Source of the DNA: an uncultured Candidatus Rokubacteria bacterium
GTDB lineage: Bacteria; Methylomirabilota; Methylomirabilia; Rokubacteriales; CSP1-6
Assembly: GCA_963771355.1 (NCBI GenBank)
Contig: CAVYTA010000006.1
Location: 1,184,001 to 1,248,000 of the forward strand
DNA length: 64,000 bases
Reading direction: 5' to 3'
Part shown: in pieces, positions 28,791 to 44,924 of the stretch
How positions within the stretch are numbered: position 1 is the stretch's first letter
Layout of the letters: every line of letters starts with the position of its first letter
Made by a program: the position numbers and the translations under genes
Notes under the pieces: model-generated
Seen by the model: the letters and a program-made list of their open reading frames with translations, nothing else
Told to the model about the DNA's origin: nothing
The model's database searches: none

Positions 28791-30060
28791 GTGAGCTCCC
28801 CCGCCCCACGCCAGCGTCGGATTGCTCTCATCGTCCTCCTGGCGGCGGTCTTCCTGGCCATCACGTCCTTCCCCTTCCGCGCCTCCTGGTGGGGTGGCTG
28901 GATCCTCGCGATCGCCGAGGCGGGCATCGTGGGCGGGCTCGCCGACTGGTTCGCCGTCACCGCGATCTTCCGCCGCCCGCTCGGACTCCCCATTCCCCAC
29001 ACCGCGCTGATCCCGGCCAACTGGGAGCTGATGGCGGAACGCGTCGGCACCATGGTCGGCGACCGCGTGCTCACCAAGGACTACGTCGCGCGCGAGGTGG
29101 CGCGCTTCGACATCGCCGATCTCCTCGCGCGTGCCGCCGACCGCGTGAAGCCCGAGGATCTCGAGGCCGTGCTGCGCGCGGCCGCGCGCTGGGCGGCGGA
29201 TCAGCTCACGCCCGAAGCCACCGCGGACATCGTGGCCTGGCTGCGCGGACTCCTCCTCGGCCGTCCCCTGGCTCCCCTCCTGGCGCGGGCCATCGAGATC
29301 GCGCAGCGCCAGGGCTGGGACCAGCGCGCGATCGAGGCGCTCGCCGGCGCCCTCGGCGACGCGCTGGATCGCCCCGACTTCCGCGCTGCGGTGGGCGAGT
29401 TGGTGGACGAAGTGCTCGCCGGCTATCGCGAGAAGATGGGCACCTACCCGCGGCTCCTGATCGGGCTGGCCAACGTCTTCGGTCTGATCAACCGGGACCG
29501 GCTCGTCGGCGTCCTCCACGGCGCCATCCGGAAGGTGGCCGCCGACCCCGCCGACCCGATGCGGCGGCGCCTCGTCGAGGTGATCGGTGCCCTCCCAGAG
29601 CGCCTGCGCCGCGATGCCGACCTGGCCGCGCGCGTGGAGACCGCGAAGACGGAGCTGCTCGCGAGCGCGGAGGTGACCCGGCTCATCGAGGACGCGACCG
29701 AGGGCCTCCGGCGCGCGCTCGTCTCGGACCTCGCGAGCGAGCGGTCCGAGACGGTGGCCTGGATCACCGCCCGTCTCGACGGGCTCCGCCGGCAGCTGTC
29801 CACGGACCCGGCCCTCCGCGCAGGCTCTCGACCGGTGGATCAAGACGCGCATCATCGGCCTGATCGAGCGCTACCACGACCGCATCGCGCGCTTCATCGA
29901 GCGGGGCGTCCACGCGCTGGGGCCCGAGGGCGCGGTGCGCCTCATCGAGGAGCACGCGGGGGACGATCTCCAGTACATCCGCGTCAACGGCACCGTGGTC
30001 GGCGGGCTCGCCGGCGGCGCCCTCTACGCGATCCACCTGCTGCTGCGCCTGCTGCTGTAA
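28791..30060 (+). CDS. DUF445 family membrane protein, +1 frameshift near 29820
   Basis: EAGIVGGLADWFAVTAIFRRPLGLPIPHTA at the N-terminus. The C-terminal DLQYIRVNGTVVGG is in another frame, restored by removing one G at ~29820. Confidence 0.88.
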
Positions 30061-30063
30061 GGG

Positions 30064-30121
30064 GGCTGCCACACCTTTCGCCACTCCTTCGGCCACCCAC
30101 CCGCTCGAGGACGGCGCCGAG
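30064..30121 (+). pseudogene. intI: Integron-integrase (tyrosine recombinase) remnant
   Basis: Translates GCHTFRHSF[+1]ATHPLEDGAE, versus IntI box II CHTFRHSFATHLLEDG. Confidence 0.7.
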
Positions 30122-30296
30122 ACTCCTGTGACCCGCCATGCCGACCCCGCCCCCGCAGTCTCCGCCGCGCTACACAGGTCTGCGTATCCCCTCCCGCGCC
30201 CACCCCACCCCATGGCGAACTATGCGCCACCTAGGCTATTCTTGCGACGCAAGGAGGCCACCGGCCATGCTACGCAGCCTTCCCGCGCTACCACCT

Positions 30297-30331
30297 CCGC
30301 GCTACACAGAACTAGATAATTCTAGTTATGC
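30297..30331 (+). other. attI-like recombination site
   Basis: AACTAG-ATAATT-CTAGTT palindrome ending in core GTTATGC (30325-30331), the exact complement of the first attC R'' (GCATAAC). Confidence 0.7.
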
Positions 30332-30365
30332 GGACAGAGGAGGGCGCGAGCCCGAGAGGAGCCAT

Positions 30366-30743
30366 ATGCCTGACGCGCGTAAGCCGGGCGACGTTCATCC
30401 GTTGTTCGTGGCTGCCTTCAACGCAGGCGATCTCGACGCTCTCATGCAGTGCTTTGAGCCTGAGGCCTGCTTCGTATCCAAGTCGGGCCGTATCGCGGCC
30501 GGAGCCGACGCAGTCCGTGAGGCATATCGGCGAACACTCGCGAACAAGCCTCACATGGAGTTGGAGGTACGAAAGGTCTTGCCCGCGGGCCCCGGTCTGG
30601 CGTTGGTCATCGTCCCGTTCACGCAGAAGGCCGTCACGGGGGACGGACCGACGGAATGGCGCAGTGTAGCGACCGACATCGTTCGGCAGCAGCCCGATGG
30701 CAGTTGGCGGCTGGTTTTGGACAATCCGTTCGGTATCGAATGA
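30366..30743 (+). CDS. SnoaL/DUF4440 NTF2-like protein (cassette 1)
   Basis: FVAAFNAGDLDAL...ATDIVRQQPDGSWRLVLDNP; GAGGAG RBS. Confidence 0.88.
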   Translation: MPDARKPGDVHPLFVAAFNAGDLDALMQCFEPEACFVSKSGRIAAGADAVREAYRRTLANKPHMELEVRKVLPAGPGLALVIVPFTQKAVTGDGPTEWRSVATDIVRQQPDGSWRLVLDNPFGIE

Positions 30744-30749
30744 ACGACC

Positions 30750-30837
30750 GCATAACACACGGCTGGAACGGACCGCCGTCAAGCGCCGTTTTGACCTCCG
30801 AGCGTGGTGCCGGCGGCCGCTCAGGCGAGCGTTCGGC
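30750..30837 (+). other. attC site 1
   Basis: GCATAAC-5-GCTGGAAC...GCTCAGG...GTTCGGC with internal palindrome. Confidence 0.85.
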
Positions 30838-30906
30838 GTTTGACAGGTAGCGCTTGCGAGTCGACAGAGCCGTGAGACCCGACTGGCCGCTTCAACGGAG
30901 AACTGC

Positions 30907-31899
30907 ATGCTGAAGACACGTCTCACGGACCTGCTGGGCCTTCGCTATCCTGTCATTTCGGCACCGATGGCGCGCATGAGCGGCGGCCGTCTGGCGGCGG
31001 CGGTCTCCGCGGCCGGCGGCCTCGGGACCTTCGGCGGCGTGGCTCTCGCAACCCCCACCGGACCGGAATACGTCCGTGAGCAGATCGCCACGATTCGGGC
31101 CCAGACGGATCGTCCGTTCGGCGTCGGTTTCATCACGCATTGGTTGTCGCGCGCACCCGAGAATTTCGAGGTCGTCCTGGAGGAGCGAGTACCGGTCGTA
31201 CTCTTCTCTTTCGCCGATCCCCGGCCGTGGATCGGTCGCGCGAGGGATGCGGGGGCCATTACCATCTGTCAGGTTCAGACGATCGACGGCGCCCGAACCG
31301 CCGTCTCGGCAGGCGCTCACGTCCTCGTCGCGCAGGGCAACGAATCCGGCGGCCACACTGGCGCCCTGCACCTGTTGCCGTTCCTCGTCCGCGTCATCGA
31401 GATGTTTCCCGAGTTACCGGTGGTCGCCGCCGGCGGGATCGCAAACGGCCGCTCGCTGGCCGCGGTCCTCGCCGCCGGCGCCGAAGGTGCCTGGGTTGGA
31501 ACGGCTTTCGTAGCAACGCCGGAGAACGAACTCCCCGAGGCCTACAAGGCACGCGTCGTCCAGCATCGGGGAGATGAGTCCGTCTACACCGAAGTGATGG
31601 ATATCGTCCTCACACGGATGCGCGGGTCGCCGGCCTGGCCGACTGGCATCGCCGCGCGCGTCCACAATAACGCTTTCATTCGCACATGGCACGGCCGCGA
31701 AGACGAGTTACGTGCCCAGCTCGACGAGGTCATCCCGATGTACGCCGAGGCCGCGAAGCGCGGAGACCAGGATGTCGTCCCCGTGTTGTTCGGGCGATCC
31801 GCCGATTTCGTCCACGCCGTGCGGCCTGCGGCCGACGTCCTCACCGAGATGTGCGCCGCCGCCGAGCGCCACCTACGCGGGCGCTGGAACGCCGATTGA
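30907..31899 (+). CDS. Nitronate monooxygenase / FabK-like flavoprotein (cassette 2)
   Basis: PVISAPM, QGNESGGH, AAGGIANG, VGTAF. Confidence 0.9.
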   Translation: MLKTRLTDLLGLRYPVISAPMARMSGGRLAAAVSAAGGLGTFGGVALATPTGPEYVREQIATIRAQTDRPFGVGFITHWLSRAPENFEVVLEERVPVVLFSFADPRPWIGRARDAGAITICQVQTIDGARTAVSAGAHVLVAQGNESGGHTGALHLLPFLVRVIEMFPELPVVAAGGIANGRSLAAVLAAGAEGAWVGTAFVATPENELPEAYKARVVQHRGDESVYTEVMDIVLTRMRGSPAWPTGIAARVHNNAFIRTWHGREDELRAQLDEVIPMYAEAAKRGDQDVVPVLFGRSADFVHAVRPAADVLTEMCAAAERHLRGRWNAD

Positions 31900-31914
31900 A
31901 GGTGGCCGAGTATC

Positions 31915-31984
31915 GCCGAACAACGCGCAGCACCCGACCGGGGCTCGCGTTGCTCGCTCCGGCGGGTGAGCGCCGGCGTTACAG
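31915..31984 (+). other. attC site 2
   Basis: GCCGAAC-5-GCAGCACC...GGTGAGC-6-GTTACAG. Confidence 0.82.
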
Positions 31985-32026
31985 ACCGGTGATGGGGGCT
32001 TCGATGATGACGCGTGAGGAACAGCT

Positions 32027-32464
32027 ATGAGACGGCTGCTCAGAGCGATCACGGTCGTCACGGCCATCTTCCTTCTCGTCGTGCCGGCCGCCACTCACGC
32101 GCAGCAACCAGCAATGCCGGTGATCGGTTTCCTCGGCACCTCGACGGCCGCGGCTTGGGCAGGTTACGTGGCCGGGTTCCGTCAGGGGCTCAGCGAGGCT
32201 GGCTATGTCGACGGCCGCAACGTCACGATCGAATTCCGCTGGGCGGAGGACCGATCCGATCGATTGTCGCCGCTCGCGGCTGATTTGGTCGGCCGTCAGG
32301 TGACCGTGATCGTCACAAGCGCTGGAACGGCTCTGGCACTCGCGGCGAAGGCCGCGACTCCGACTATCCCCGTCGTTTTCGTGATGGGGGCCGACCCCGT
32401 CAAGTTCGGTCTCGTCGCCAGTCTCGGTCGTCCGGGAGGGAACCTCACGGGGGTGTCAAGCTGA
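32027..32464 (+). pseudogene. Truncated ABC substrate-binding protein (ABC_sub_bind family)
   Basis: [12 protein letters not shown]...[16 protein letters not shown]...[21 protein letters not shown] then stops; only the N-terminal half is present. Confidence 0.8.
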
Positions 32465-32519
32465 GGCGGAGGCGGAGGGCATCGTTGCTCGTCTACCCCA
32501 TCGGCGGCACTCTTACGTA

Positions 32520-33068
<549 letters not shown>

Positions 33069-33100
33069 CTATCGGGCCTCAGACGGCTCCGAGCGCCGCC

Positions 33101-33135
33101 GCCTAACCCGCCGCTGAACCGCAGTATCGTTAGCC
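33101..33135 (+). other. attC site 3, internally deleted (35 bp)
   Basis: GCCTAAC-CCGCCGCTGAACCGCAGTATC-GTTAGCC; both R boxes retained, central stem missing. Confidence 0.7.
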
Positions 33136-33623
33136 GCTATGATGTGTGACCGATCGGTGCGAGCATGCGCGGGCGCGCCCTGGAAGGCGCGCATGTGTCA
33201 GAACGAGGGAGGTTCCAGGGCTGGCGATGACGGTTAAGACACTGCGCCCCCAATCGCGAGTGGCGCGATCACGGACAGTGAGCGTGAAGTTCGGTCGGCG
33301 CCACGAGGCCGGACGCGCGCTTCGTCATACTGTCGACTCACGCTGCGCGGAGCTAATCGTGCAGGGTGTGCCACGATCGGACACGGCGAGTGCTAAGTGA
33401 CAACGCATCACGCTGGGGCCCGGTAGCGGCCATCGCCGCGATCAGCATGAACAGCAATTGAAGGAGCTCGCGACCCTCGGCATCAAGCGGGTCGGGCTCA
33501 TGATCTGCGAGACGCTTTTGCTTGGCACTGCTGGTCCTCGCGCTCCTGCGCTGGGGCGGCTGAAGGCGCAAGGCACCGCCCCAGATCGCTGCCTGTGAGT
33601 GCGCTCTCTTCAAAGGATAAGGC

Positions 33624-35324
33624 ATGAACGGCTGGAAGCGTTGGCTGCCCGGGCTGCAGATGGCCAGCCGGTACGAGGCCGCCTGGCTGCCGCACGATCT
33701 TATGGCCGGCCTGGTACTGACCACGATGCTGGTGCCGGTTGGAATTGCCTACGCAGTGGCCTCGGGCGTCCCGGGGATCTACGGCCTGTACGCCACCATC
33801 GTCCCGCTGCTCGCCTACGCCCTGTTCGGCCCGAGCCGGATCCTGGTGCTGGGGCCGGATTCCGCGCTCGCCGCGGTGATTCTCGCGGTCGTGCTGCCTC
33901 TCTCTGCCGGCGACCCGATGCGCGCCGTGGCCCTGGCGAGCATGATGGCGGTGGTGTCGGGACTGGTGTGCATTCTGATCGGCGTAATGCGCCTGGGATT
34001 CGTCACCGAGCTGCTGTCCAAACCGATCCGCTACGGCTACATGAACGGCATCGCGCTCGCCGTGCTGATCAGCCAGCTGCCGAAGCTGTTCGGCTTTTCG
34101 ATCGACAGCGTCGGGCCGCTGCGCGACCTCCTGCGGATCGCGCGGTCGATCCTGGGCGGCCAGGCCAACTGGACGGCGTTCGCGGTCGGCGCCGGCACGC
34201 TGGTGGCGATCCTGCTGCTCAAGCCCTGGAAGCGAATCCCCGGCCTACTGATCGCGGTCGTGGGCGCCACGGTCGCGGTAGGCGCGCTCGGCCTGGACGA
34301 GAGCGCCGGGGTGAAGGTGCTCGGTCCGCTGCCGCAAGGCCTGCCGTCGTTCGCGCTGCCGTGGATAGATCTCGCCGACCTCGTCCAGGTGGTGATCGGC
34401 GGCTGCGCCGTCGCCCTGGTGGCGTTTGCCGACACGAGCGTCCTGTCGCGCACGTATGCGGCCAAGACCCGCTCCCAGGTCGATCCGAACCAGGAGATGA
34501 TCGGCCTGGGCGCCGCGAACCTGGCGGCCGGGCTGTTCCAGGGCTTCCCGATCAGCAGCAGCTCCTCGCGCACGCCGGTCGCCGAAGCCGCGGGCGCGAA
34601 GACCCAGCTCACCGGCGTGGTCGGCGCCGCGGCCGTTGCCCTGCTGCTGTTAGTCGCACCCAATCTGCTGGAAGACCTGCCCAGCAGCGCGCTGGCAGCC
34701 GTCGTGATTGCGGCGGCCATCGGCCTGTTCGAATTCGACGACCTGCGCCGCATTTTCCGCATCCAGCGCTGGGAGTTCTGGCTGTCCGTCGTTTGCTTCG
34801 TTGGCGTCGCAGCATTCGGAGCGATTCCCGGCATCTGCTTGGCGATCGTCATCGCCGTCATGGAGTTTCTCTGGGACGGCTGGCGGCCACATTACGCCGT
34901 GCTGGGCCGAGTCGACGGCATCCGGGGCTTCCACGACATCAAGCGCTATCCCGAGGCGCGGCTCGTTCCGGGCCTGGTCCTGTTCCGCTGGGATGCGCCG
35001 CTCTTCTTCGCCAATGCCGAGCTGTTTCACCAGCGCGTGCTCGAGGCCGTGGCGCAATCGCCGACGCCGATGCGCCGGATCATCGTGACCGCCGAGCCGG
35101 TCACCAGCATCGACGTGACCTCGGCGGACATGCTCGCCGAGCTGGAGCATGCCCTGCGCGAATCGGGCATCGAGATGCGCTTCGCGGAAATGAAGGACCC
35201 GGTCAAGGACAAGCTGAAGCGCTTCGAACTGTTCGAGCGCTTCGGTACCGCGAGCTTTCATCCTACCGTGGGCGCCGCCGTCGACGCCTACCTAGAAGAG
35301 CACTCGGTGGATTGGAAACCCTGA
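33624..35324 (+). CDS. SulP/SLC26 anion transporter with STAS domain
   Basis: DLMAGL, GLYA, FGPSR, NQEMIGLG, SSSRT, PLFFANA. Confidence 0.95.
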   Translation: MNGWKRWLPGLQMASRYEAAWLPHDLMAGLVLTTMLVPVGIAYAVASGVPGIYGLYATIVPLLAYALFGPSRILVLGPDSALAAVILAVVLPLSAGDPMRAVALASMMAVVSGLVCILIGVMRLGFVTELLSKPIRYGYMNGIALAVLISQLPKLFGFSIDSVGPLRDLLRIARSILGGQANWTAFAVGAGTLVAILLLKPWKRIPGLLIAVVGATVAVGALGLDESAGVKVLGPLPQGLPSFALPWIDLADLVQVVIGGCAVALVAFADTSVLSRTYAAKTRSQVDPNQEMIGLGAANLAAGLFQGFPISSSSSRTPVAEAAGAKTQLTGVVGAAAVALLLLVAPNLLEDLPSSALAAVVIAAAIGLFEFDDLRRIFRIQRWEFWLSVVCFVGVAAFGAIPGICLAIVIAVMEFLWDGWRPHYAVLGRVDGIRGFHDIKRYPEARLVPGLVLFRWDAPLFFANAELFHQRVLEAVAQSPTPMRRIIVTAEPVTSIDVTSADMLAELEHALRESGIEMRFAEMKDPVKDKLKRFELFERFGTASFHPTVGAAVDAYLEEHSVDWKP

Positions 35325-35329
35325 AAAGC

Positions 35330-35364
35330 AAAAAAGACCGGACCTCTTGCGAGACCGGGTTCTT
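35330..35364 (-). terminator. Degenerate intrinsic terminator (possibly bidirectional)
   Basis: Minus strand ACCCGGTCTC-GCAA-GAGGTCCGGT followed by a T-tract. Confidence 0.6.
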
Positions 35365-35380
35365 CGTCTCGAGTATAGGG

Positions 35381-35433
35381 TGGCGAAAACCTACTTTTGC
35401 AACGAAGGCACACTTTCATCGTCGCAACTCCGT
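35381..35433 (-). pseudogene. rrf: Degenerate 3' half of a 5S rRNA gene
   Basis: Minus strand ACGGAGTTGCGACGATGAAAGTGTG...GCAAAAGTAGGTTTTCGCCA, versus 5S 3' consensus GCGCCGATGATAGTG...GCGAAAGTAGGTCATCGCCA. Confidence 0.7.
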
Positions 35434-35549
35434 CTGCCCCGGATCGGGCGTGCTGGTACGACGGGCCGTCAAGGCGGGTGCTCGAGCCACCGGAAGCGAC
35501 GGAGCCCGTAATCGCGACGGTCGATCATGCTGATATCCGTGGGAGCGTC

Positions 35550-35638
35550 GTCTAACAACCGATTGGTGCGGCCGGCGTCCAGGTTACGGTGACAACCTCT
35601 AGACGTGGTAGCGCCGCCGCTCAACCGGAGCGTTCGGC
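35550..35638 (+). other. attC site 4
   Basis: GTCTAAC-5-ATTGGTGC...GCTCAAC-6-GTTCGGC. Confidence 0.83.
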
Positions 35639-35672
35639 GACTTCGCGAAACTCAACGGTCGGAGGACAGCCT

Positions 35673-36698
35673 ATGCTTGGTCGCACCCCTCATCCTTGTG
35701 CCTGGCTCCTCGCCTCGCGATGCGCGCTTGTCCTTTCCGTGATTCTGGGCATGCTCGCTGCGTCCCTCCCGGCGGCGGCGCAGGCGCCCCAGAAGGTCTA
35801 TCGCGTCGGTCACCTTGCGGCACCGGGTCGAACACCCGACGGTGCCCCGCCGCGCGTACTCCGTGAAGCGTTGCGAGAGCTCGGCTACGTCGAGGGCCAG
35901 AACATCGCATACGAGGCCCGTTTTGCTGAGGGCAAGCTGGAGCGGCTGCCAGATTTGGCGGCCGAGCTCGTCCGGCTCAAGGTCGACGTCATCGTGGCGC
36001 AAGGGGGGGCGTCGACGGAGGCGGCAAGGCGAGCGACATCGACGATTCCGATCATCATGGCGCCGGCCTCGGGGGATGCCGTGGCGGTCGGATGGATCGC
36101 AACCCTTGCGCGCCCAGGCGCGAACGTCACCGGATTGAGCGATGAGTCCATCCAACTGAGTGCCAAGCGGATGGAGCTTCTCAAGGAGGCGCTGCCGAAA
36201 GCAGCCCTGATCGCGATCATCTGGAACGCCAACGATCGTGGTATGACGCTGCGCTACCGCGAGATCGAGAAAGCGGCGCTCACCCTCCGTGTGGAGGTGC
36301 AAGGGCTGGGCGTGCGCGATCCCGAGGACTTCGCGGCGGCATTCGCCACGATGACACAGCGCAGGCCAGACGCGATGTTCCTGGTTGCGGACGCTCTCAC
36401 GAACATCAATCGTAAACGGTTTGTCGAGTTCGCGGCGACCCACCGCATTCCGGCAATGTATGAGTCCAGCGTCATCGTCCGCGAGGGGGGGCTGATGTCG
36501 TACGGGTCCAGCTTCGAGGACGAGTTCCGTGAGGCCGCCCGGTACATCGATCGCATTCTCAAGGGCGCGAAGCCGGCGAATCTGCCCGCCGTGCAGCCAA
36601 CGAAGTACTACTTCGTGGTCAATCTCAAGACGGCGACCACTTTGGGGCTGACGTTTCCCCAGTCCCTGCGCCTCCGGATCGACGAACTGGTCGAGTAG
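35673..36698 (+). CDS. Orphan ABC substrate-binding protein (ABC_sub_bind family, cassette 5)
   Basis: GGAGG RBS; LGYVEGQNI, LARPGANVTG, GGLMSYG, ILKGAKPANLP, NLKTA. Confidence 0.92.
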   Translation: MLGRTPHPCAWLLASRCALVLSVILGMLAASLPAAAQAPQKVYRVGHLAAPGRTPDGAPPRVLREALRELGYVEGQNIAYEARFAEGKLERLPDLAAELVRLKVDVIVAQGGASTEAARRATSTIPIIMAPASGDAVAVGWIATLARPGANVTGLSDESIQLSAKRMELLKEALPKAALIAIIWNANDRGMTLRYREIEKAALTLRVEVQGLGVRDPEDFAAAFATMTQRRPDAMFLVADALTNINRKRFVEFAATHRIPAMYESSVIVREGGLMSYGSSFEDEFREAARYIDRILKGAKPANLPAVQPTKYYFVVNLKTATTLGLTFPQSLRLRIDELVE

Positions 36699-36705
36699 AT
36701 GGATC

Positions 36706-36762
36706 GCCGAACAAGCCGCTGCAGCGGACCGGCTGCGCCAGCCCTGAGCGCCGACGTTAGCC
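36706..36762 (+). other. attC site 5
   Basis: GCCGAAC-5-GCTGCAGC...CCTGAGC-6-GTTAGCC. Confidence 0.85.
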
Positions 36763-36819: not shown

Positions 36820-37347
36820 ATGCGGCTCCTAGCCCTTACCCTGCTCCTGCTCTTCGCGTCCCCGGGCTCCGCGCAGATGTCGCCATTCGAATTCAATGGT
36901 GTCGCGCTGGGAACCGATCTCGCGTCGATCGAGCGCACGTCCCGCTTCTCGTGCACGGAGTCGCGGAGCCCGGTCGCGGACCAGCTCTGCCGCCTCAAGT
37001 CGGGTGAGCGCGAGACCATCGGCGACGCCCCGGTGAAGGGGCTCTTCCTCTACTTCTATTCGGGCAAGCTCGAGATGATCTCCCTCACCCTCGAGCCAAA
37101 GCACTTCCCCGACGTCGTGGGCGCCCTGACGAAACGGTATGGCACGGGAAGCATAGAAACCGAGACCGTGCAGAATCTCACCGGCGGAACGTTCGAGAAC
37201 AAGATCTATTCCTGGCGCCGAAACAAGGCAACGCTCGAAGCGCAGACCTACGGCAGGAACCTCGAAACGTCGTCCCTGATCTATCGCACCGACTTTTCCC
37301 TGGAGGAGTATACGCGGCGGAGCAGCGCGAATCCGGCGGGCCGCTAG
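36820..37347 (+). CDS. Secreted hypothetical protein
   Basis: AAGGAGG RBS, signal peptide, two Cys; no recognised domain. Confidence 0.75.
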   Translation: MRLLALTLLLLFASPGSAQMSPFEFNGVALGTDLASIERTSRFSCTESRSPVADQLCRLKSGERETIGDAPVKGLFLYFYSGKLEMISLTLEPKHFPDVVGALTKRYGTGSIETETVQNLTGGTFENKIYSWRRNKATLEAQTYGRNLETSSLIYRTDFSLEEYTRRSSANPAGR

Positions 37348-40300
37348 CCCGAGGCCCACACGTCCACGAGATACCGGTTCCGCGCGACGAGATCGTCGAG
37401 CCATGCCTCCGCCTGCGCCGCCGTCCCGCCGGTCTTCGCGCGGTGGATGGCGGCGAAGGCGCGCCGCACGTCGGGAGCCATGCGGGTGGCGTCCCCGCAG
37501 ACGTAGACGATCGCGCCCGCCTCCAGGAGGGTCCAGACGTCGTCCTTCCGCTCGACAACCTCGTCCTGCACATAGACGCGCGCCCGGTCGGCCACCCGCG
37601 AGAAGCAGGGATAGAGCGACGCCACCCCTCCCTCGGCGAAGGCGCGCAGCTCCCCTGCGTAGATGAAGTCCTGCTCGGGATGTCGGCAGCCGAAGAAGAG
37701 GAGGGCGGGGCCGATGGGCCGGCTCTGCGCACGCAGAGCGGCGCGCTCCTGGAGGAAGCCGCGGAACGGGGCCAGGCCGGTGCCGGGGCCGATCATGATG
37801 AGGGGCGTCGTCGGATCGTCGGGGAGGCGGAACGCCGACCGGGTGTCCTTCACGAACGCCTGGACGAGGCTTCCCTCCCCCTGGCGGAGGAGGTGATTCG
37901 AGCACACGCCCTCGAAGACCCCGCGGCCGGACCGCGCCTCGCCCGCCACTACCGCCACCGTGATGCTGCAGCGCCGCGCGTCGTGGAGCGGCGACGACGA
38001 GATCGAGTAGTAGCGCGGGCGGAGCGGCGGGAGCATCTCGAGATACACGTTGAACGGGAGCTGGCAGGCCGGGTACTCCTCGAGGAGGTCGAGCACCGAC
38101 TTGCGGCGCGCCATCACCTCGTCCTTGTAGCGTGCCTCGTCAGCCGCCAGCGCGGCCAGCCGCGGCCGCGTCCACGGGCATTCCGTGTGCTCGACCATGG
38201 TCTGGAGGTGGCGGCGCGAAGCGACCTCCTGGAGCTCCAGGTAGTCGCCGAGGAGGCGCGCGAGCGCGATCGGCGCGTCCACGGGGAGGAAGCCCGGGCG
38301 CCCGCCCTCGCGGTGGAGCCGCACGTGACTGGCCGGATCCAGGCCGAAGCGCGCGGTCACCCGGGCGACAAGCGCGTGGGGATTCCGCGGCGCCACGCCC
38401 AGATGGTCGCCTGCGCGATACGCCACCCCCGCAGGAAGCTCGAGCTCGAGGTGGCGGGTCGAGCGCTCCGACGGGAAGGGGCCGCGCCTTGGTGTGGAGC
38501 TCACGGTTAACGGCCACGCGCATGGGGCGGGCGCCATGGCCGTCCTCGCGAGTGCCCGCATCCGGCCCCGCCACGATCTCGACGGTGAGGTGCGCCGGCT
38601 CGGCGGCTTCGGCGGGGGTCAGCTCGACCCCCAGCGTGGTGGCGACGGCGCCCCAGAGCGGCTCCTGCCAGGCTTCGAACTGAGCGTCGAAGTCGTCCCG
38701 CGCGTCGCCTTCACCACGTGGGTGTAAACGCTGGGCGCCCAGCGCCTCGAGCCGAGCATCGATCAGGCGCGGGATGGCCTGGAACGTCGCCGCCCAGTCG
38801 CGGTTGCCGCAGCCGAACACCGCATAGCGGACGCCGGCGAGGGCGCCGGGGGCGAGCCCGCCGTCGCGCAGCCAGTCGCAGAAGCGCCCGGCATTGTCGG
38901 GGGGCGTGCCGTTGTAGGACGCGGTGGTGATGAGGACGGCACCCTCGCGGGGCAGCCGGCCGGCGTACTCGTCGAGGGACGCGACGGTCACTGCGAAGCC
39001 TTGCCCCTCGCCTGCCTCGGCGATGCGCCGCGCGACCTCCTCGGCGGTGCCGAGGTTCGACCCGTACAGCACGATGGAGCGGGGTCTGGTGGCCTGGGCG
39101 AGAGGCGCGCGCGGCCGGCGCGACGCGGGCGGCCACCGCCGCGCCCGTGCTCGTGGTGGCGACCGCACGTCCCGTCGCCGCGCGATCGCGGTCGGTGCGG
39201 CGCCGGACCTTGATGCGGAACTGGTCCGGCTTCACCGTGAGGGTTTCCTTGAGGGTAAGCCGGTAGCGCGTGTGATCGATGAGCTTGAAGCGCTGGAGGA
39301 TCATCCCGAGGACGAGCGCCGCCTCCTGCAGGGCGAACTGCCGGCCGATGCAGGCCCGCTGGCCATTGCCGAAGGGCTTGTACGCGTTGGCGGGACGCTG
39401 TCGCTCCGCCTCACGGCTGAAGTTGTCGGGGTTGAAGACGTCGGCCTGCTCGCCCCACACCTTCCGGTCGCGGTGGAGCATGGGACTCAGCACCACGATC
39501 TGGTAGTTCTTCCGCATCCGGTACAATCCGCCAATCATCTCGTCCTTGTACGGCGACAGCGCGAACACCGGCGCGGTGGGCCAGAGCCGGAGCGATTCCT
39601 TCAGGATCTGCTCGAGGTAGGCGAGCTGATTCACCTGGGCGTAGGTGGGTAACACCCCCGGATCCGGCCCGAGCACGCGATCCACCTCGGCGGAGGCGCG
39701 GGCGAGCACGTCGGGATTGTTGAGGAGATAGTAGACGGCGAAGGAGAGGAGCCCGCTCGTGGTCTCGTGGCCGGCGATGAGGAAGGTGATGACCTGGTAG
39801 CGGATATTGAGGTCGTCGAGCCGTTCGCCCGTCTTCCGGTCGACGCCGGAGAGCATGTGGCTGAGGAGATCGGGCTTGTCGGCGAGGTCGTCGCCGCTCT
39901 CCCGCCGCTCCCGCACGATCCGGTCCACCATCTCGTTCATGTAGCGGATGTCGGCGCGGAGCTTCCGCTCCCGGTCCTTCTTCACGATGCTCTCGAGCGG
40001 GAGACCCCGGGTCTCCATCGACGTGCCCAGCGCGCCGATCATGGCGCCCACGAAGGGGTGCGGCGACTCCCGGTAGAACGAGTTGAAGCGGTAGCCGAAG
40101 CCGCAGAGGCCGATGGTGTCGAGCGTCAGCGACGTCATGTCATGGGTGACGTCGATCTCGTCGTCGGCGTTGAGGCGGTCCCACTTGAGCACGAGCTGCT
40201 CGGCGATGTCGAGCATCATGGGGTGATAGCCCTGCATCGCGCGCTGGCCGAAGCTCGGCAGGAGGATGTTGTGCGCTCGGGACCAGTTGGGCTCCTGGGT

Positions 40301-40585
40301 GTAGGCGGTGAAGAGCCCGTCGCCCGCGAAGTCGCGCAGCCGGCGGAGAGCTCCGCGCACGCTCTTGTCGAAGCGCGACTCGTCACAGAGCTCGTCCACG
40401 AGGTCGAATCCCGAGACGATCACCACCGGCTTGCCGAGCATGTCGAGCCAGTAGATCGGACCGTACTCTTGGGCCAGCTTCATCATGTCCTGCACGGGCG
40501 AGATGGTGGTGAGCGAGAGGAGATTGCCCAGGACGAAGGTCCGCGGCGGATGGGGGATCGGGGTGAGGGCATTCTTCTTCGCCAT
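37344..40585 (-). CDS. Bifunctional cytochrome P450/NADPH-P450 reductase (CYP102, BM3-like), two apparent +1 frameshifts
   Basis: AGHETTSG and FGNGQRACIG (heme); YGSNLGT and ASYNG (FMN); RYYSISS and GPGTGLAPFRG (FAD/NADPH). Split over three frames at ~39076 and ~38486. Confidence 0.9.
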
Positions 40586-40648
40586 CTCGCTCACCCGCCC
40601 CGCGGGCCGGTGCTGCCACGGACCTGCCTCAGCGCCATCGCGCCGGAC

Positions 40649-41775: not shown

Positions 41776-43500
41776 ATGAGCAGGATCGTCGCGACGAGCC
41801 GCGGACGGCTGGAGGGCAGCGAGGAAGGCGGTCTCGTCGTCTTCCGCGGCATTCCGTTCGCGCGGGCGCCGGTGGGCCCGCGCCGCTTCCGCCCGCCCGA
41901 GCCGGCGGAGCCGTGGGACGGCGTCCGTGAGGTCCGGCGCTTCGGTCCAGCGGCTCCGCAGAACGCCGCCGAGATGGGGCCGATCTTCCGACTCGGGATC
42001 GGCGAGACCAGCGAGGACTGCCTCTACCTGAACGTGTGGACCCCCGCTCCCGACGGCGCGCGGCGGCCGGTGCTGGTGTGGATCCACGGGGGCGCCTTCG
42101 TACTGGGCGCCGGCTCGCAGCTCCTCTACGACGGCTCCACCCTCGCCCGGCGCGGCGACGTCGTGGTCGTCACCCTCAACTACCGGCTCGGCACCCTCGG
42201 GTTCCTCCACCTCGCCACGCGCTTCGGGACGGACCTGCCCGCCACCGGCAATGAGGGGCTGCTCGACCAGATCGCCGCGCTCCAGTGGGTACGCGACGAG
42301 ATCGCGTCCTTCGGCGGCGATCCCGGCAACGTCACCATCTTCGGCGAGTCGGCGGGGTCCATGAGCTGCGCCACACTACTAGGGACCCCGCGCGCCCAGG
42401 GTCTCTTCCACCGCGCCATCCTCCAGTCCGGGGCCGCCAACTACGTGTGGTCCCGGGAGACCGCCGCGGCCGTCGCCGAGGCGGTCCTGGTCGCGCTCGA
42501 CATCGGGACGGCGGAGGCGCTATCCGCAGTCCCGCCCGAGCGGCTGCTCGCCGCCCAGCGCCGCATCTTCCTCGCGCTCGTGCTCGGCCGGGAGCACCTC
42601 CTCAATGACCTGTCCCCGGGGGGACAGCGAGTGGTGGGCGCGGCCTTCCTCGGCCTGACGCTGGCGCGCCGACCGCTCGGCGGGGCGGCCGGCGCGCTCA
42701 CGCGCGGCCTCGTCGGCGTGCTCCGGCGGCGCCAGCGGGCGCGCGCGTCGAGATCGACGCCTTCCGAGACGCCCCCCCTGCTCGTCGGGCTCCGCACGCG
42801 GGGACTGCCGTTCCAGCCGGTGGTGGACGGCCAGCTCCTGCCGCGGCCGCCCCTGGAGGCCATCGGGGGCGGGATGGCGCGACGGGTCCCCGTGCTCGTG
42901 GGGACGAACCGCGACGAGTCGAAGCTCTTTCTCTTCCTCGATCCCGAAGCCGGCGCGCTCGACGCGGCGGGCCTCGAGCGGCGCTGCGTGGAGATTCTCG
43001 GCGAGCACGCCGCGCGGGCGGTGGCGGTGTACCGGGCGGCGCGGCAGGCGCGCGGCGAGTCGATCGAGCCGGCCGAGCTCTGGGCCGCGATCGAATCGGA
43101 CCGGACCATGCGCCATCCCGCCATGCGGCTCGCCGAGCGGCAGCGGGCGCATCAGTCGCGCACCTACGCGTACCTCTTCACCTGGCCTTCACCCTTCATG
43201 GGCGGCATCCTCGGCGCCTGCCACGCCCTCGAGCTCCCCTTCGTCTTCGGCACCCTGGGCCATCCGTTGCTCCGCCCGTTCGCGGGCAAGGGGCCCGCCG
43301 CCGAGGCGTTCGCCGCAAAAATCCAGGACGCCTGGCTGGCTTTCGCACGCACCGGCGATCCCTCCCACGGAGGGATCGGAGACTGGCCCGCCTACGACGC
43401 GACCCGCCGGGCCACCATGGTGCTCGACCGCGAGTGCCGGGTGGAGCTCGCCCCCCGCGAGCCAGAACGCGCCTTCTGGGACTCGCTGGGTTCGGACTAG
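41776..43500 (+). CDS. Type B carboxylesterase/lipase
   Basis: SEDCLYLNVW, WIHGGAF, GESAG, GTNRDE, GACHALE. Confidence 0.93.
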   Translation: MSRIVATSRGRLEGSEEGGLVVFRGIPFARAPVGPRRFRPPEPAEPWDGVREVRRFGPAAPQNAAEMGPIFRLGIGETSEDCLYLNVWTPAPDGARRPVLVWIHGGAFVLGAGSQLLYDGSTLARRGDVVVVTLNYRLGTLGFLHLATRFGTDLPATGNEGLLDQIAALQWVRDEIASFGGDPGNVTIFGESAGSMSCATLLGTPRAQGLFHRAILQSGAANYVWSRETAAAVAEAVLVALDIGTAEALSAVPPERLLAAQRRIFLALVLGREHLLNDLSPGGQRVVGAAFLGLTLARRPLGGAAGALTRGLVGVLRRRQRARASRSTPSETPPLLVGLRTRGLPFQPVVDGQLLPRPPLEAIGGGMARRVPVLVGTNRDESKLFLFLDPEAGALDAAGLERRCVEILGEHAARAVAVYRAARQARGESIEPAELWAAIESDRTMRHPAMRLAERQRAHQSRTYAYLFTWPSPFMGGILGACHALELPFVFGTLGHPLLRPFAGKGPAAEAFAAKIQDAWLAFARTGDPSHGGIGDWPAYDATRRATMVLDRECRVELAPREPERAFWDSLGSD

Positions 43501-43534
43501 GGGCTGTAGCTGGCGCGAGCTAGACGAACGGCAA

Positions 43535-44924
43535 CCGGGCGTCGAGAAGGGTCCAGATGCGAGGCGGCGCCCGAGATCCGCCTGCGAGGCGTACCCCTGG
43601 TACGTTGAGCAGTGGGCTTGCCCCGCTTTCGTGGACACCCCCCGCACAAACGTGCGATAGGAGTGGTCCATGAGCGAGCGACGGAAGCGGCGGACGTTTA
43701 GCGAGGCCTTCAAGGCGGAAGCAGTGCGGCTCGTGCGGGATGAGGGCAAGACCGTGGCCGCGGCGGCGCGGGCGCTCGATCTCGCGCGAGTCGGCGTTGC
43801 GGCTCTGGGTCCGCGATGCCGAGCGCGAGGCGCGGCACACCGGGGCGCTGAGTAACGGCGGAGCGCAAAGAGCTGGAGCAGTTGCGGCGAGAGAACCGCA
43901 CGCTCCGGATGGAGCGCGACATCCTGAAAAAAAGCGACGGCCTTCTTCGCCAAGGACCACGCGTGAGGTTCGCGTTCATCCAGGCGGAGAAGGCCACCTT
44001 CCCGGTCACGGTACTCTGCCGGGTGCTGGGGGTCTCCCGTGCGGGCTTCTACGCCGCTCAGAGCCGCCCGGTGCCGCCGCGGGTCACGGCGGATGCCCGG
44101 CTGGCGGTGCAGATCGCCGCGATCCACCGGGCGAGCCGACGGTGCTACGGCAGCCCGCGCGTGCACGCCGAGCTGCGGGCCCGCGGGCAGGGCACCAGTC
44201 GCAAGCGGGTGGCGCGGCTCATGCGGCGCGCCGGGTTGGCGGCCCGCCGCCGCCGGGCCTTCCGGGTCACCACCCAGTCGCGGCATACCCACCCGGTGGC
44301 CCCGAACCGGCTGGCCCGGCAGTTCACGGCCCCAGTCCCGGATCGCGTCTGGGTGACCGACATCACGTACCTGGCGACGGTCGAGGGCTGGCTGTACCTG
44401 GCGGTGGTGCTGGATCTGTTTTCCCGCCGGGTCGTCGGTTGGGCCGCGAGCGACCGCCTCGGCGAAGGCGTCGCGCTCGAGGCGCTTGGGAATGGGGCTG
44501 GCCCGGCGCCGGCCGCGGCCCGGGCTGCTGCATCACTCGGATCGGGGCTCGCAGTATGCCAGTGCGGAGTATCGCGCGGTCCTGGCCGGGCACGGGATGG
44601 ACACCGCAGCATGAGCGCGGGTGCGGCCAGCTGCTGGGACAACGCCGTGGCCGAGAGCTTCTTCGCCGACGCTCAAGGTCGAGCTCGACCACGACGGCGC
44701 CTGGCGGACGCGGGCGGAGGCGCACCGCGCGGTGTTTGACTACATCGAACTCTTCTACAACAGCGCACGCGGCGGCACTCGACGCCTCGGCTATCTCAGC
44801 CCGCGTGGCCGTTCGAACGGCAGTGGCAGCACACCGCGTAGTGAACCTGTCCACGGAATCGGGGCAAGTCCAGCAGGCGGACGAGTGGCGCCAACGAAGC
44901 AGATGGGCCCTTATCGGCGCCCGG
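43535..44924. repeat. MITE/REP-like element copy 2, split by IS3 (43535-43612 plus 44877-44924)
   Basis: Flanks join into a homologue of 28073-28199; IRs CCGGGCGTCGAGAAGGGTCCA / TGGGCCCTTATCGGCGCCCGG. Confidence 0.85.
43613..44872 (+). mobile_element. IS3-family insertion sequence (1260 bp), transposase broken by multiple indels
   Basis: TG...CA ends; IRs TGGGCTTGCCCCGCTTTCGTGGACA / TGTCCACGGAATCGGGGCAAGTCCA; GCAG target duplication; orfA HTH; A7G slippery site 43927-43934; WVTDITY, LDLFSR, CWDNAVAESFF. Confidence 0.95.

Follow-up and report, generated by a model that had tools for sequence, protein, structure and literature searches.

How do arrays of integron cassettes that have no integrase gene beside them arise, and are they dead? 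In its accessible text, the survey that defined such arrays as CALINs (clusters of attC sites lacking integron-integrases) leaves both points open (PMC4889954). A locus in an uncultured Candidatus Rokubacteria bacterium (assembly GCA_963771355.1, contig CAVYTA010000006.1) raises this question. We analysed a stretch of 64,000 nucleotides of this contig (positions 1,184,001 to 1,248,000 of the forward strand, called the window hereafter, whose coordinates are used throughout), in which a first-pass annotation made from the sequence alone had proposed that an attI and five attC sites form a chromosomal integron between positions 30064 and 36762. That this segment is what remains of an integron, with a true attI, is close to certain. 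It is a CALIN that has kept its dock, by which we mean attI and the ~180-bp module that ends with it, and not a complete integron, and the same module heads three other arrays of the genome.

Results

The five attC-style sites announced by the first-pass annotation are present, all on the + strand, and four of them match a covariance model with 31.1 to 41.9 bits (E 2e-7 to 6e-5). This model was built from 18 attC-like sites of the congeners G002 and G003, none from the window, which were first picked by a pattern scan and then aligned; the alignment covaries, with 91% of cells paired and 48 two-sided changes versus 17 in shuffles, pairing having been part of the picking criterion. The matching sites are attC1 (30750–30837, 31.1 bits), attC2 (31915–31984, 40.1 bits), attC4 (35550–35638, 41.9 bits) and attC5, the final site of the array (36706–36762, 41.1 bits). 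In each of them the R box pairs at three of three positions and the L box at six of seven, with one extrahelical base, a C on the bottom strand. The remaining site, attC3 (33101–33135), is collapsed: it retains R'' and R' but its hairpin is gone, it scores no better than the background (13.2 bits, E 0.77, versus 12.8 bits), and it is probably dead. For sites 1, 4 and 5 the minimum-energy fold of the bottom strand is the R/L hairpin, as had been anticipated, with energies that are ordinary compared with shuffles (z −0.7, −1.0 and +0.35, respectively). The anticipated fold did not hold for site 2, in which the R' core is damaged and an alternative fold is favoured by 6 kcal/mol. All cassette genes are on the + strand, separated from the attC sites by 6, 15, 32, 225 and 7 nt after their stop codons (the 225 nt follow the SulP gene described below). 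When the whole genome was scanned with the model (150 candidates scored), 17 of the 18 best matches (E≤0.012) fell inside four arrays headed by an attI. A strict attC pattern matched the genome 8 times versus 3 times in the reversed control, and a Rfam scan of the window gave one weak, irrelevant match. Outside the four arrays, a lone attC match of 32.7 bits lies at G000:C5:1000227-1000280 (G000 being the genome of the window), with a fragment of a tyrosine recombinase some 2.6 kb away. The first cassette of the FAS1 array of G003 closes with another collapsed attC of 19 nt (L114:4466-4485), whose R'' is almost directly joined to R'.

The integrase IntI joins the folded bottom strand of an attC site to a double-stranded attI at G|TT, and the opening core of a cassette is thus complementary to the R'' of its own attC. 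The complementarity that the first-pass annotation had noticed is borne out on a larger sample. In the window the opening cores of cassettes 1 to 5 agree with their own R'' at 7/7, 7/7, 4/7, 6/7 and 7/7 positions, a modest excess when the window is taken alone (16 of 20 variable bases versus 12.4 expected, p=0.038). Among 52 cassettes in five arrays, 32 are perfect in the four variable bases versus 9 when the comparison is made with their own R', and the total was reached by none of 20000 shuffles. Cassettes 3 and 4, however, are composites that have suffered damage and not clean single cassettes. The first core matches R'' at 7/7 positions in each of the five attI-led arrays tested, directly behind a conserved AGATA-TTCTA-G motif, which places the crossover in the window at G30325|T30326 and confirms the attI at the head of the array. 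This simple site (30314–30331, + strand) is made of an L box (30314–30320), a 4-bp spacer and an R core (30325–30331) that is the exact complement of the R'' of attC1, and it fits the description of attI sites given in the available part of PMC12614218, in which L and R boxes with a spacing of 4–5 bp head the array.

This attI is homologous in position to the site behind intI in G002. It ends a module of ~180 bp (30150–30331, + strand) that shares 69% identity with the DNA following intI in G002 and is present in four copies in the genome. Core-like heptamers are found in the window module at 30169 (with an inverted partner at 30182), 30269 and 30301. In the 240 nt behind intI stop codons 102 such heptamers were counted, in 40 of the 44 loci examined, versus 30 ± 6 in shuffles; the pattern used was chosen after viewing the sequences, and the R core is itself among its matches. 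In attI1 the direct repeats serve as accessory IntI sites, and by analogy the heptamers of the module may have the same role. A TATYCT hexamer whose position is shared by 6 of 10 aligned modules, and which lies at 30237 in the window, is a possible −10 element; one RNA run contains 0.30 of the window's words, which is not evidence of expression. Two other searches for attI sites were set aside. The 18-nt attI palindrome has 39 exact matches in named genomes, mostly in low-GC taxa, which were taken as chance; two of them, from one Acidobacteria metagenome-assembled genome (L071 and L100), were examined, and L100 has an attC nearby. A genome-wide half-site matrix (threshold 12) was uninformative, with 113 matches in the reversed control.

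A complete integron has an intact intI beside attI, and here we find only a 69-nt stub of the 3' end of the gene (30066–30134, + strand). The stub comprises 55 nt around the box II H-x-x-R motif, an internal deletion and the stop-codon region. Positions 30066–30120 encode the motif across a 1-nt insertion and are 87% identical over 55 nt to intI of G002; identity of the stub to another intI (L218) is 91%. As the ~180 bp that follow also match the DNA behind the 3' end of intI in G002, the stub precedes attI and is on the same strand as the cassettes. The view of the first-pass annotation that this chromosomal integron has no intact integrase is supported by a search of the whole genome (99.8% complete, 8 contigs), in which the best TIGR02249 score is 82 bits for a cut-off of 265, and in which the IntI of a relative used as query obtains at most 63 bits.

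In relatives the co-oriented order intI–attI–cassettes is general, and the orientation of the stub agrees with it. Among 30 intI loci, 21 of which have at least 1 kb of 5' flank and two weak ones of which may not be intI, 19 have attC sites on the 3' side and on the same strand, and none on the 5' side. A phylum-wide search added 26 loci, with sides read from coordinates, 16 with attC downstream and none upstream, which brings the count to 35 of 56 loci with downstream attC and none with upstream attC, in flanks of at most 1.5 kb. The remnants of intI differ from locus to locus: box II in the window, the last ~20 codons at the sister array on contig C4, scattered pieces in G003, and both ends in G148, a genome of another genus. 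The erosion of intI has therefore been repeated and independent. In two genomes of another family (L196, L197), very short, apparently gene-less first cassettes were seen just behind attI, after an intact intI.

The three sister modules of the genome stand after a DUF2277 gene (G000:C4:240801, L111), a FAS1-like dehydratase gene (C6:2498449, L110) and a LuxR gene (C8:125033, L112), where they lead 10, 8 and 3 attC matches, respectively, without an intact intI in any of these arrays. The array at the LuxR site contains a cassette that may be a small toxin–antitoxin (addiction) module. Several stages of erosion are visible at the DUF2277 locus, where the intI of G002 is full-length, has its frame broken at three points and comes with 26 attC matches, G000 keeps the last ~20 codons and G003 scattered pieces; the array of G148 is headed by an intI without its middle. 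Further copies of the module were found in G002 (C3), G004 (partial), G102 and four metagenome contigs. Counted over relatives, the module has at least nine different chromosomal surroundings, in most of them without intI, as found with a narrow search pattern (5 of the 183 genomes of the order matched). In G102 (L125), a tRNA-like fragment lies just before the module, where ARAGORN calls no tRNA.

Docks without intI differ in their contents. At the FAS1 dock, G000, G002 and G003 have three different opening cores, which match their own R'' at 7/7, 6/7 and 7/7 positions, and G000 and G003 share a junction devoid of intI; no module match was found at this locus in the other five congeners. Similarly, a junction without intI is 96% identical in two metagenome contigs (L227 and L228) and leads into unrelated first cassettes. 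The presence of different first cassettes behind a shared intI-less junction is suggestive of cassette turnover through an integrase supplied in trans. Some cassettes are found at more than one locus, with 92–97% identity, versus 84–93% for flanking DNA, and one of them is present at two loci of G002 (96.7%); since this identity is only slightly above that of flanking DNA, it dates little by itself. At the C4 sister array, near-identical pieces in the contigs of four DNA runs span the module and the first cassette (record 17, with no differences), and two DNA-run records leave or enter the array at attC sites, which is only a weak hint of rearrangement.

Comparison with congeners also reveals the chromosomal site without the array. 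The stub begins 5 nt after the stop codon of a DUF445 gene (28791–30060, + strand, PF04286), which is in two frames with a break near 29830 and has orthologues in congeners. On the right, the array is flanked by a conserved hypothetical gene (36820–37347, + strand), whose orthologue (65–71% identity) directly follows DUF445, within ~30–70 bp, in G001, G004, G005 and G007, so that four of the six congeners examined have an unoccupied site. Of the other two, G006 has a different gene there and G002 is rearranged, and neither attC nor module was found at the DUF445 site in any of the six. The possibility that 36820–37347 is a sixth cassette is ruled out by its position behind DUF445 in congeners; its matches in the atlas are unnamed clusters only. 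The first-pass annotation had described the integron as parked in a lipid-storage gene region. A WS/DGAT gene is indeed in the neighbourhood, but the sister arrays adjoin unrelated genes and this neighbourhood therefore looks incidental.

The five cassettes are all on the + strand. Cassette 1 (30326–30831) carries a SnoaL-like/DUF4440 gene (30366–30743) and recurs at 87% identity between two attC sites in G091, a member of another genus. Cassette 2 (30832–31978) carries a gene of the nitronate monooxygenase family (30907–31899, PF03060) and has no close DNA match among the 182 other genomes of the order. Cassette 3 (31979–33129) contains the 5' part of an ABC substrate-binding gene (open reading frame 32027–32464) followed by a start-less RibD_C gene (32520–33068); it is a fusion in which a deletion has joined an ABC and a RibD cassette, and its opening core is damaged. 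Intact versions of both parts exist in relatives: the ABC cassette is whole in G105 and in G148, where the RibD cassette follows directly, and the RibD cassette is found in G010, G002 and G148, with, in G010, an intact 58-nt attC that has the same start as the collapsed attC3. Cassette 4 (33130–35632) is composed of ~490 bp without a recognised gene (two short pieces of this leader gave no Pfam match), a SulP anion transporter gene (33624–35324, PF00916/TIGR00815) and an IS110-like remnant. A short stretch after SulP (35380–35405) may resemble an insertion sequence (IS) end. The SulP gene has a 95% identical counterpart in the tail of the G148 array, with no attC within 1.5 kb. Cassette 5 (35633–36756) carries an ABC substrate-binding gene (35673–36698, PF04392). 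Cassettes vary between relatives as units, as seen for SnoaL (G091), RibD (G010, G002, G148) and ABC (G105, G148). Scans of two libraries gave no match of any of the six cassette genes to a family of resistance or toxin genes. Genes of the PF04392 family are frequent cassettes across the arrays, often the first one. The idea that scattered ABC paralogues are dispersed cassettes was rejected, as an attC left arm is present in 0 of 34 outside arrays versus 5 of 5 inside (39 of 45 matches were scored, six pieces without a 3' end being excluded).

The remnant in cassette 4 (35438–35543, − strand) is a fragment of the non-coding downstream end of an IS110-family element, 79–94% identical to copies in relatives. 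Twenty of the 22 copies examined (L166 and L170–L189 among the loci) end at the same GTT-containing junction, and in about 10 of them the attC model match ends at the element junction, by its R' core. Our observations make it possible that this is an RNA-guided, attC-targeting element of the lineage. Elements of the IS1111 group that target attC sites (IS1111-attC) are described in the accessible parts of PMC11187229 and PMC11089894; like them, the window remnant comes from an IS with a DEDD transposase and a downstream non-coding region, seated at attC sites, but it differs from them in that the transposase of the relatives' element is placed by its score in the IS110 family (NF033542) and the end of the element adjoins the GTT of R'.

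Discussion

We think it probable, with moderate confidence, that a copy of a resident co-oriented integron came to this site, lost its intI and has since been serviced in trans. In this history the dock, likely a copy of the co-oriented integron of the lineage, would have landed between two conserved genes together with a working intI. Deletions would then have removed intI, as seems likely, and selection would have kept the ~180-bp module as an IntI-binding site and probably a promoter. The orphan docks of the lineage would be serviced by IntI made elsewhere, through which alone the array would now change, and the fused cassette 3, the collapsed attC3 and the IS debris suggest an array that is now decaying.

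Several observations weigh against this history. At E≤1e-100 an intact intI is present in none of the 8 genomes of the genus, versus 49 of 158 other genomes of the family, and the only full-length intI of the genus, that of G002, has three frame breaks, so that no genome of the genus offers an evident source of the enzyme that would act in trans. A promoter scan found no sigma-70 consensus site. Separate losses of intI in the individual lineages would allow the differences between first cassettes to be older than these losses. When the DUF445 site is compared with that of congeners, neither a target duplication nor a recombination scar is visible. Upstream DNA resembling intI is present in 3 of the 13 modules tested and absent in 10, which also fits a spread of the module without intI. 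Finally, the adjacency of ABC and RibD and the SulP gene are common to G148 (98% identity for ABC, 89% for RibD and 95% for SulP), which would fit the arrival of part of the array as a block.

Three other explanations were weighed. The palindromes could be terminators or chance GC-rich hairpins with no integron at all, as would be consistent with folds that do not beat shuffles and with the result of the strict pattern scan in the reversed control, but this reading is refuted by the matches to an independent model, the concentration of the best matches in attI-led arrays, the core rule, the intI stub and the cassettes shared with relatives, and we regard it as next to impossible; no result of the kind named as counter-evidence by the first-pass annotation (no model matches, bottom strands without R and L boxes, the same gene order in distant relatives) was obtained. 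A second explanation is that the ~180-bp module spreads alone as a non-autonomous element, with a single distant IntI filling the docks and the stub being DNA dragged along. It would account for at least nine contexts in a narrow lineage, for the many modules not preceded by intI-like DNA, for a homology that starts within ~25 nt of the first motif in all aligned copies, and for contigs 94% identical to G000 flanks that bear the module at two sites that are vacant in G000. It is contradicted by the intI stubs found in the window, at C4 and in G003 and by the internally deleted intI that heads the G148 array; further arguments against it are the ragged left edge of the module and the absence of visible terminal repeats or target duplications, no moving mechanism being evident; we find it unlikely. 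A related and tentative possibility is a distributed integron, in which the module would copy itself without intI and one resident or visiting IntI would fill and reshuffle all docks in trans from a common cassette pool.

The segment might also have arrived ready-made, by horizontal transfer and illegitimate recombination with the left cut inside intI, in which case IntI would never have acted here. The start of the stub so close to the DUF445 stop codon is in line with this proposal, and so are the G148-like order of ABC and RibD and the high identity of ABC and SulP to this other genus. A stable array is moreover suggested by 14 DNA runs from 5 studies, which contain more than half of the stretch's sampled words. 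We nevertheless hold this origin to be quite unlikely, because the module is related to the genome's other modules (64–77% identity, the C4 module being the nearest with 77%) and has no real match in the G148 platform, cassettes 1, 2 and 5 are absent from the 33 kb of G148 compared, and RibD is only 89% identical to its G148 counterpart. The copying of a resident integron followed by loss of intI remains the history that we favour.

The window array resembles CALINs in having several attC sites and no intact intI nearby, and its five units equal the mean of 5 given in the accessible text of PMC4889954, which also lists intI loss as one origin of CALINs and places half of them in genomes without intI. 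It differs from them by its attI, the module upstream, the intI stub, and the presence of four attI-led arrays in one genome. In that text recognisable pseudogenes are found near only 15 of 279 CALINs, by a test that needs more than 50% profile coverage, a requirement below which the window stub would fall. With the co-oriented ('inverted') integrons of Treponema it shares an intI transcribed toward attI and cassettes on the same strand; by the coordinates given in the available part of PMC3607928, the T. brennaborense core is ~215 bp past intI, a distance similar to that in the window. The differences are that the present lineage is a high-GC soil lineage, that its layout is general, with no classical locus among those counted, and that its spacer has repeated core-like heptamers. 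The group of co-oriented integrases is paraphyletic according to the same partly accessible survey (PMC4889954). The nearest named IntI that we found, on a replicon of Gemmatirosa kalamazoonensis (64% identity), is co-oriented, and the next, from Kovacikia (61%), is classical, with attC on the 5' side. Pseudo-integrons with a broken intI, as far as they are covered by the accessible part of PMC2426708, also combine frequent independent decay of intI with several integrons per genome; in the present lineage, decay went to near-total deletion and the dock was kept at many loci. No paper on this system was found in a literature search whose scope left outside most subscription journals and the supplements of integron surveys, which may list these genomes.

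Taken singly, the window array is ordinary, a variant of known things (CALINs and co-oriented integrons). Its interest comes from the conserved, searchable attI module that marks many integrase-less arrays in one lineage, and from the side-by-side occurrence of occupied and vacant sites and of intI genes eroded to different degrees, so that both the origin of such arrays by intI loss and their servicing in trans can be put to a direct test. A further point of interest is a whole phylum-level group whose integrons are co-oriented as a rule. The first-pass annotation had missed the intI stub, the co-oriented layout, the three sister arrays and the composite nature of cassettes 3 and 4.

Other features of the locus

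Three genes of the window are split between frames: DUF445 (28791–30060), a P450-reductase fusion gene (37344–40594) and an IS-like transposase gene (43500–44900). Indel errors of long-read sequencing may account for these splits. Faulty assembly could likewise explain the frame breaks of the DUF445 and P450 genes, the 1-nt insertion of the stub and the collapse of attC3. The GC content of the array is 65.6%, versus 71.6% and 70.6% in the flanks.

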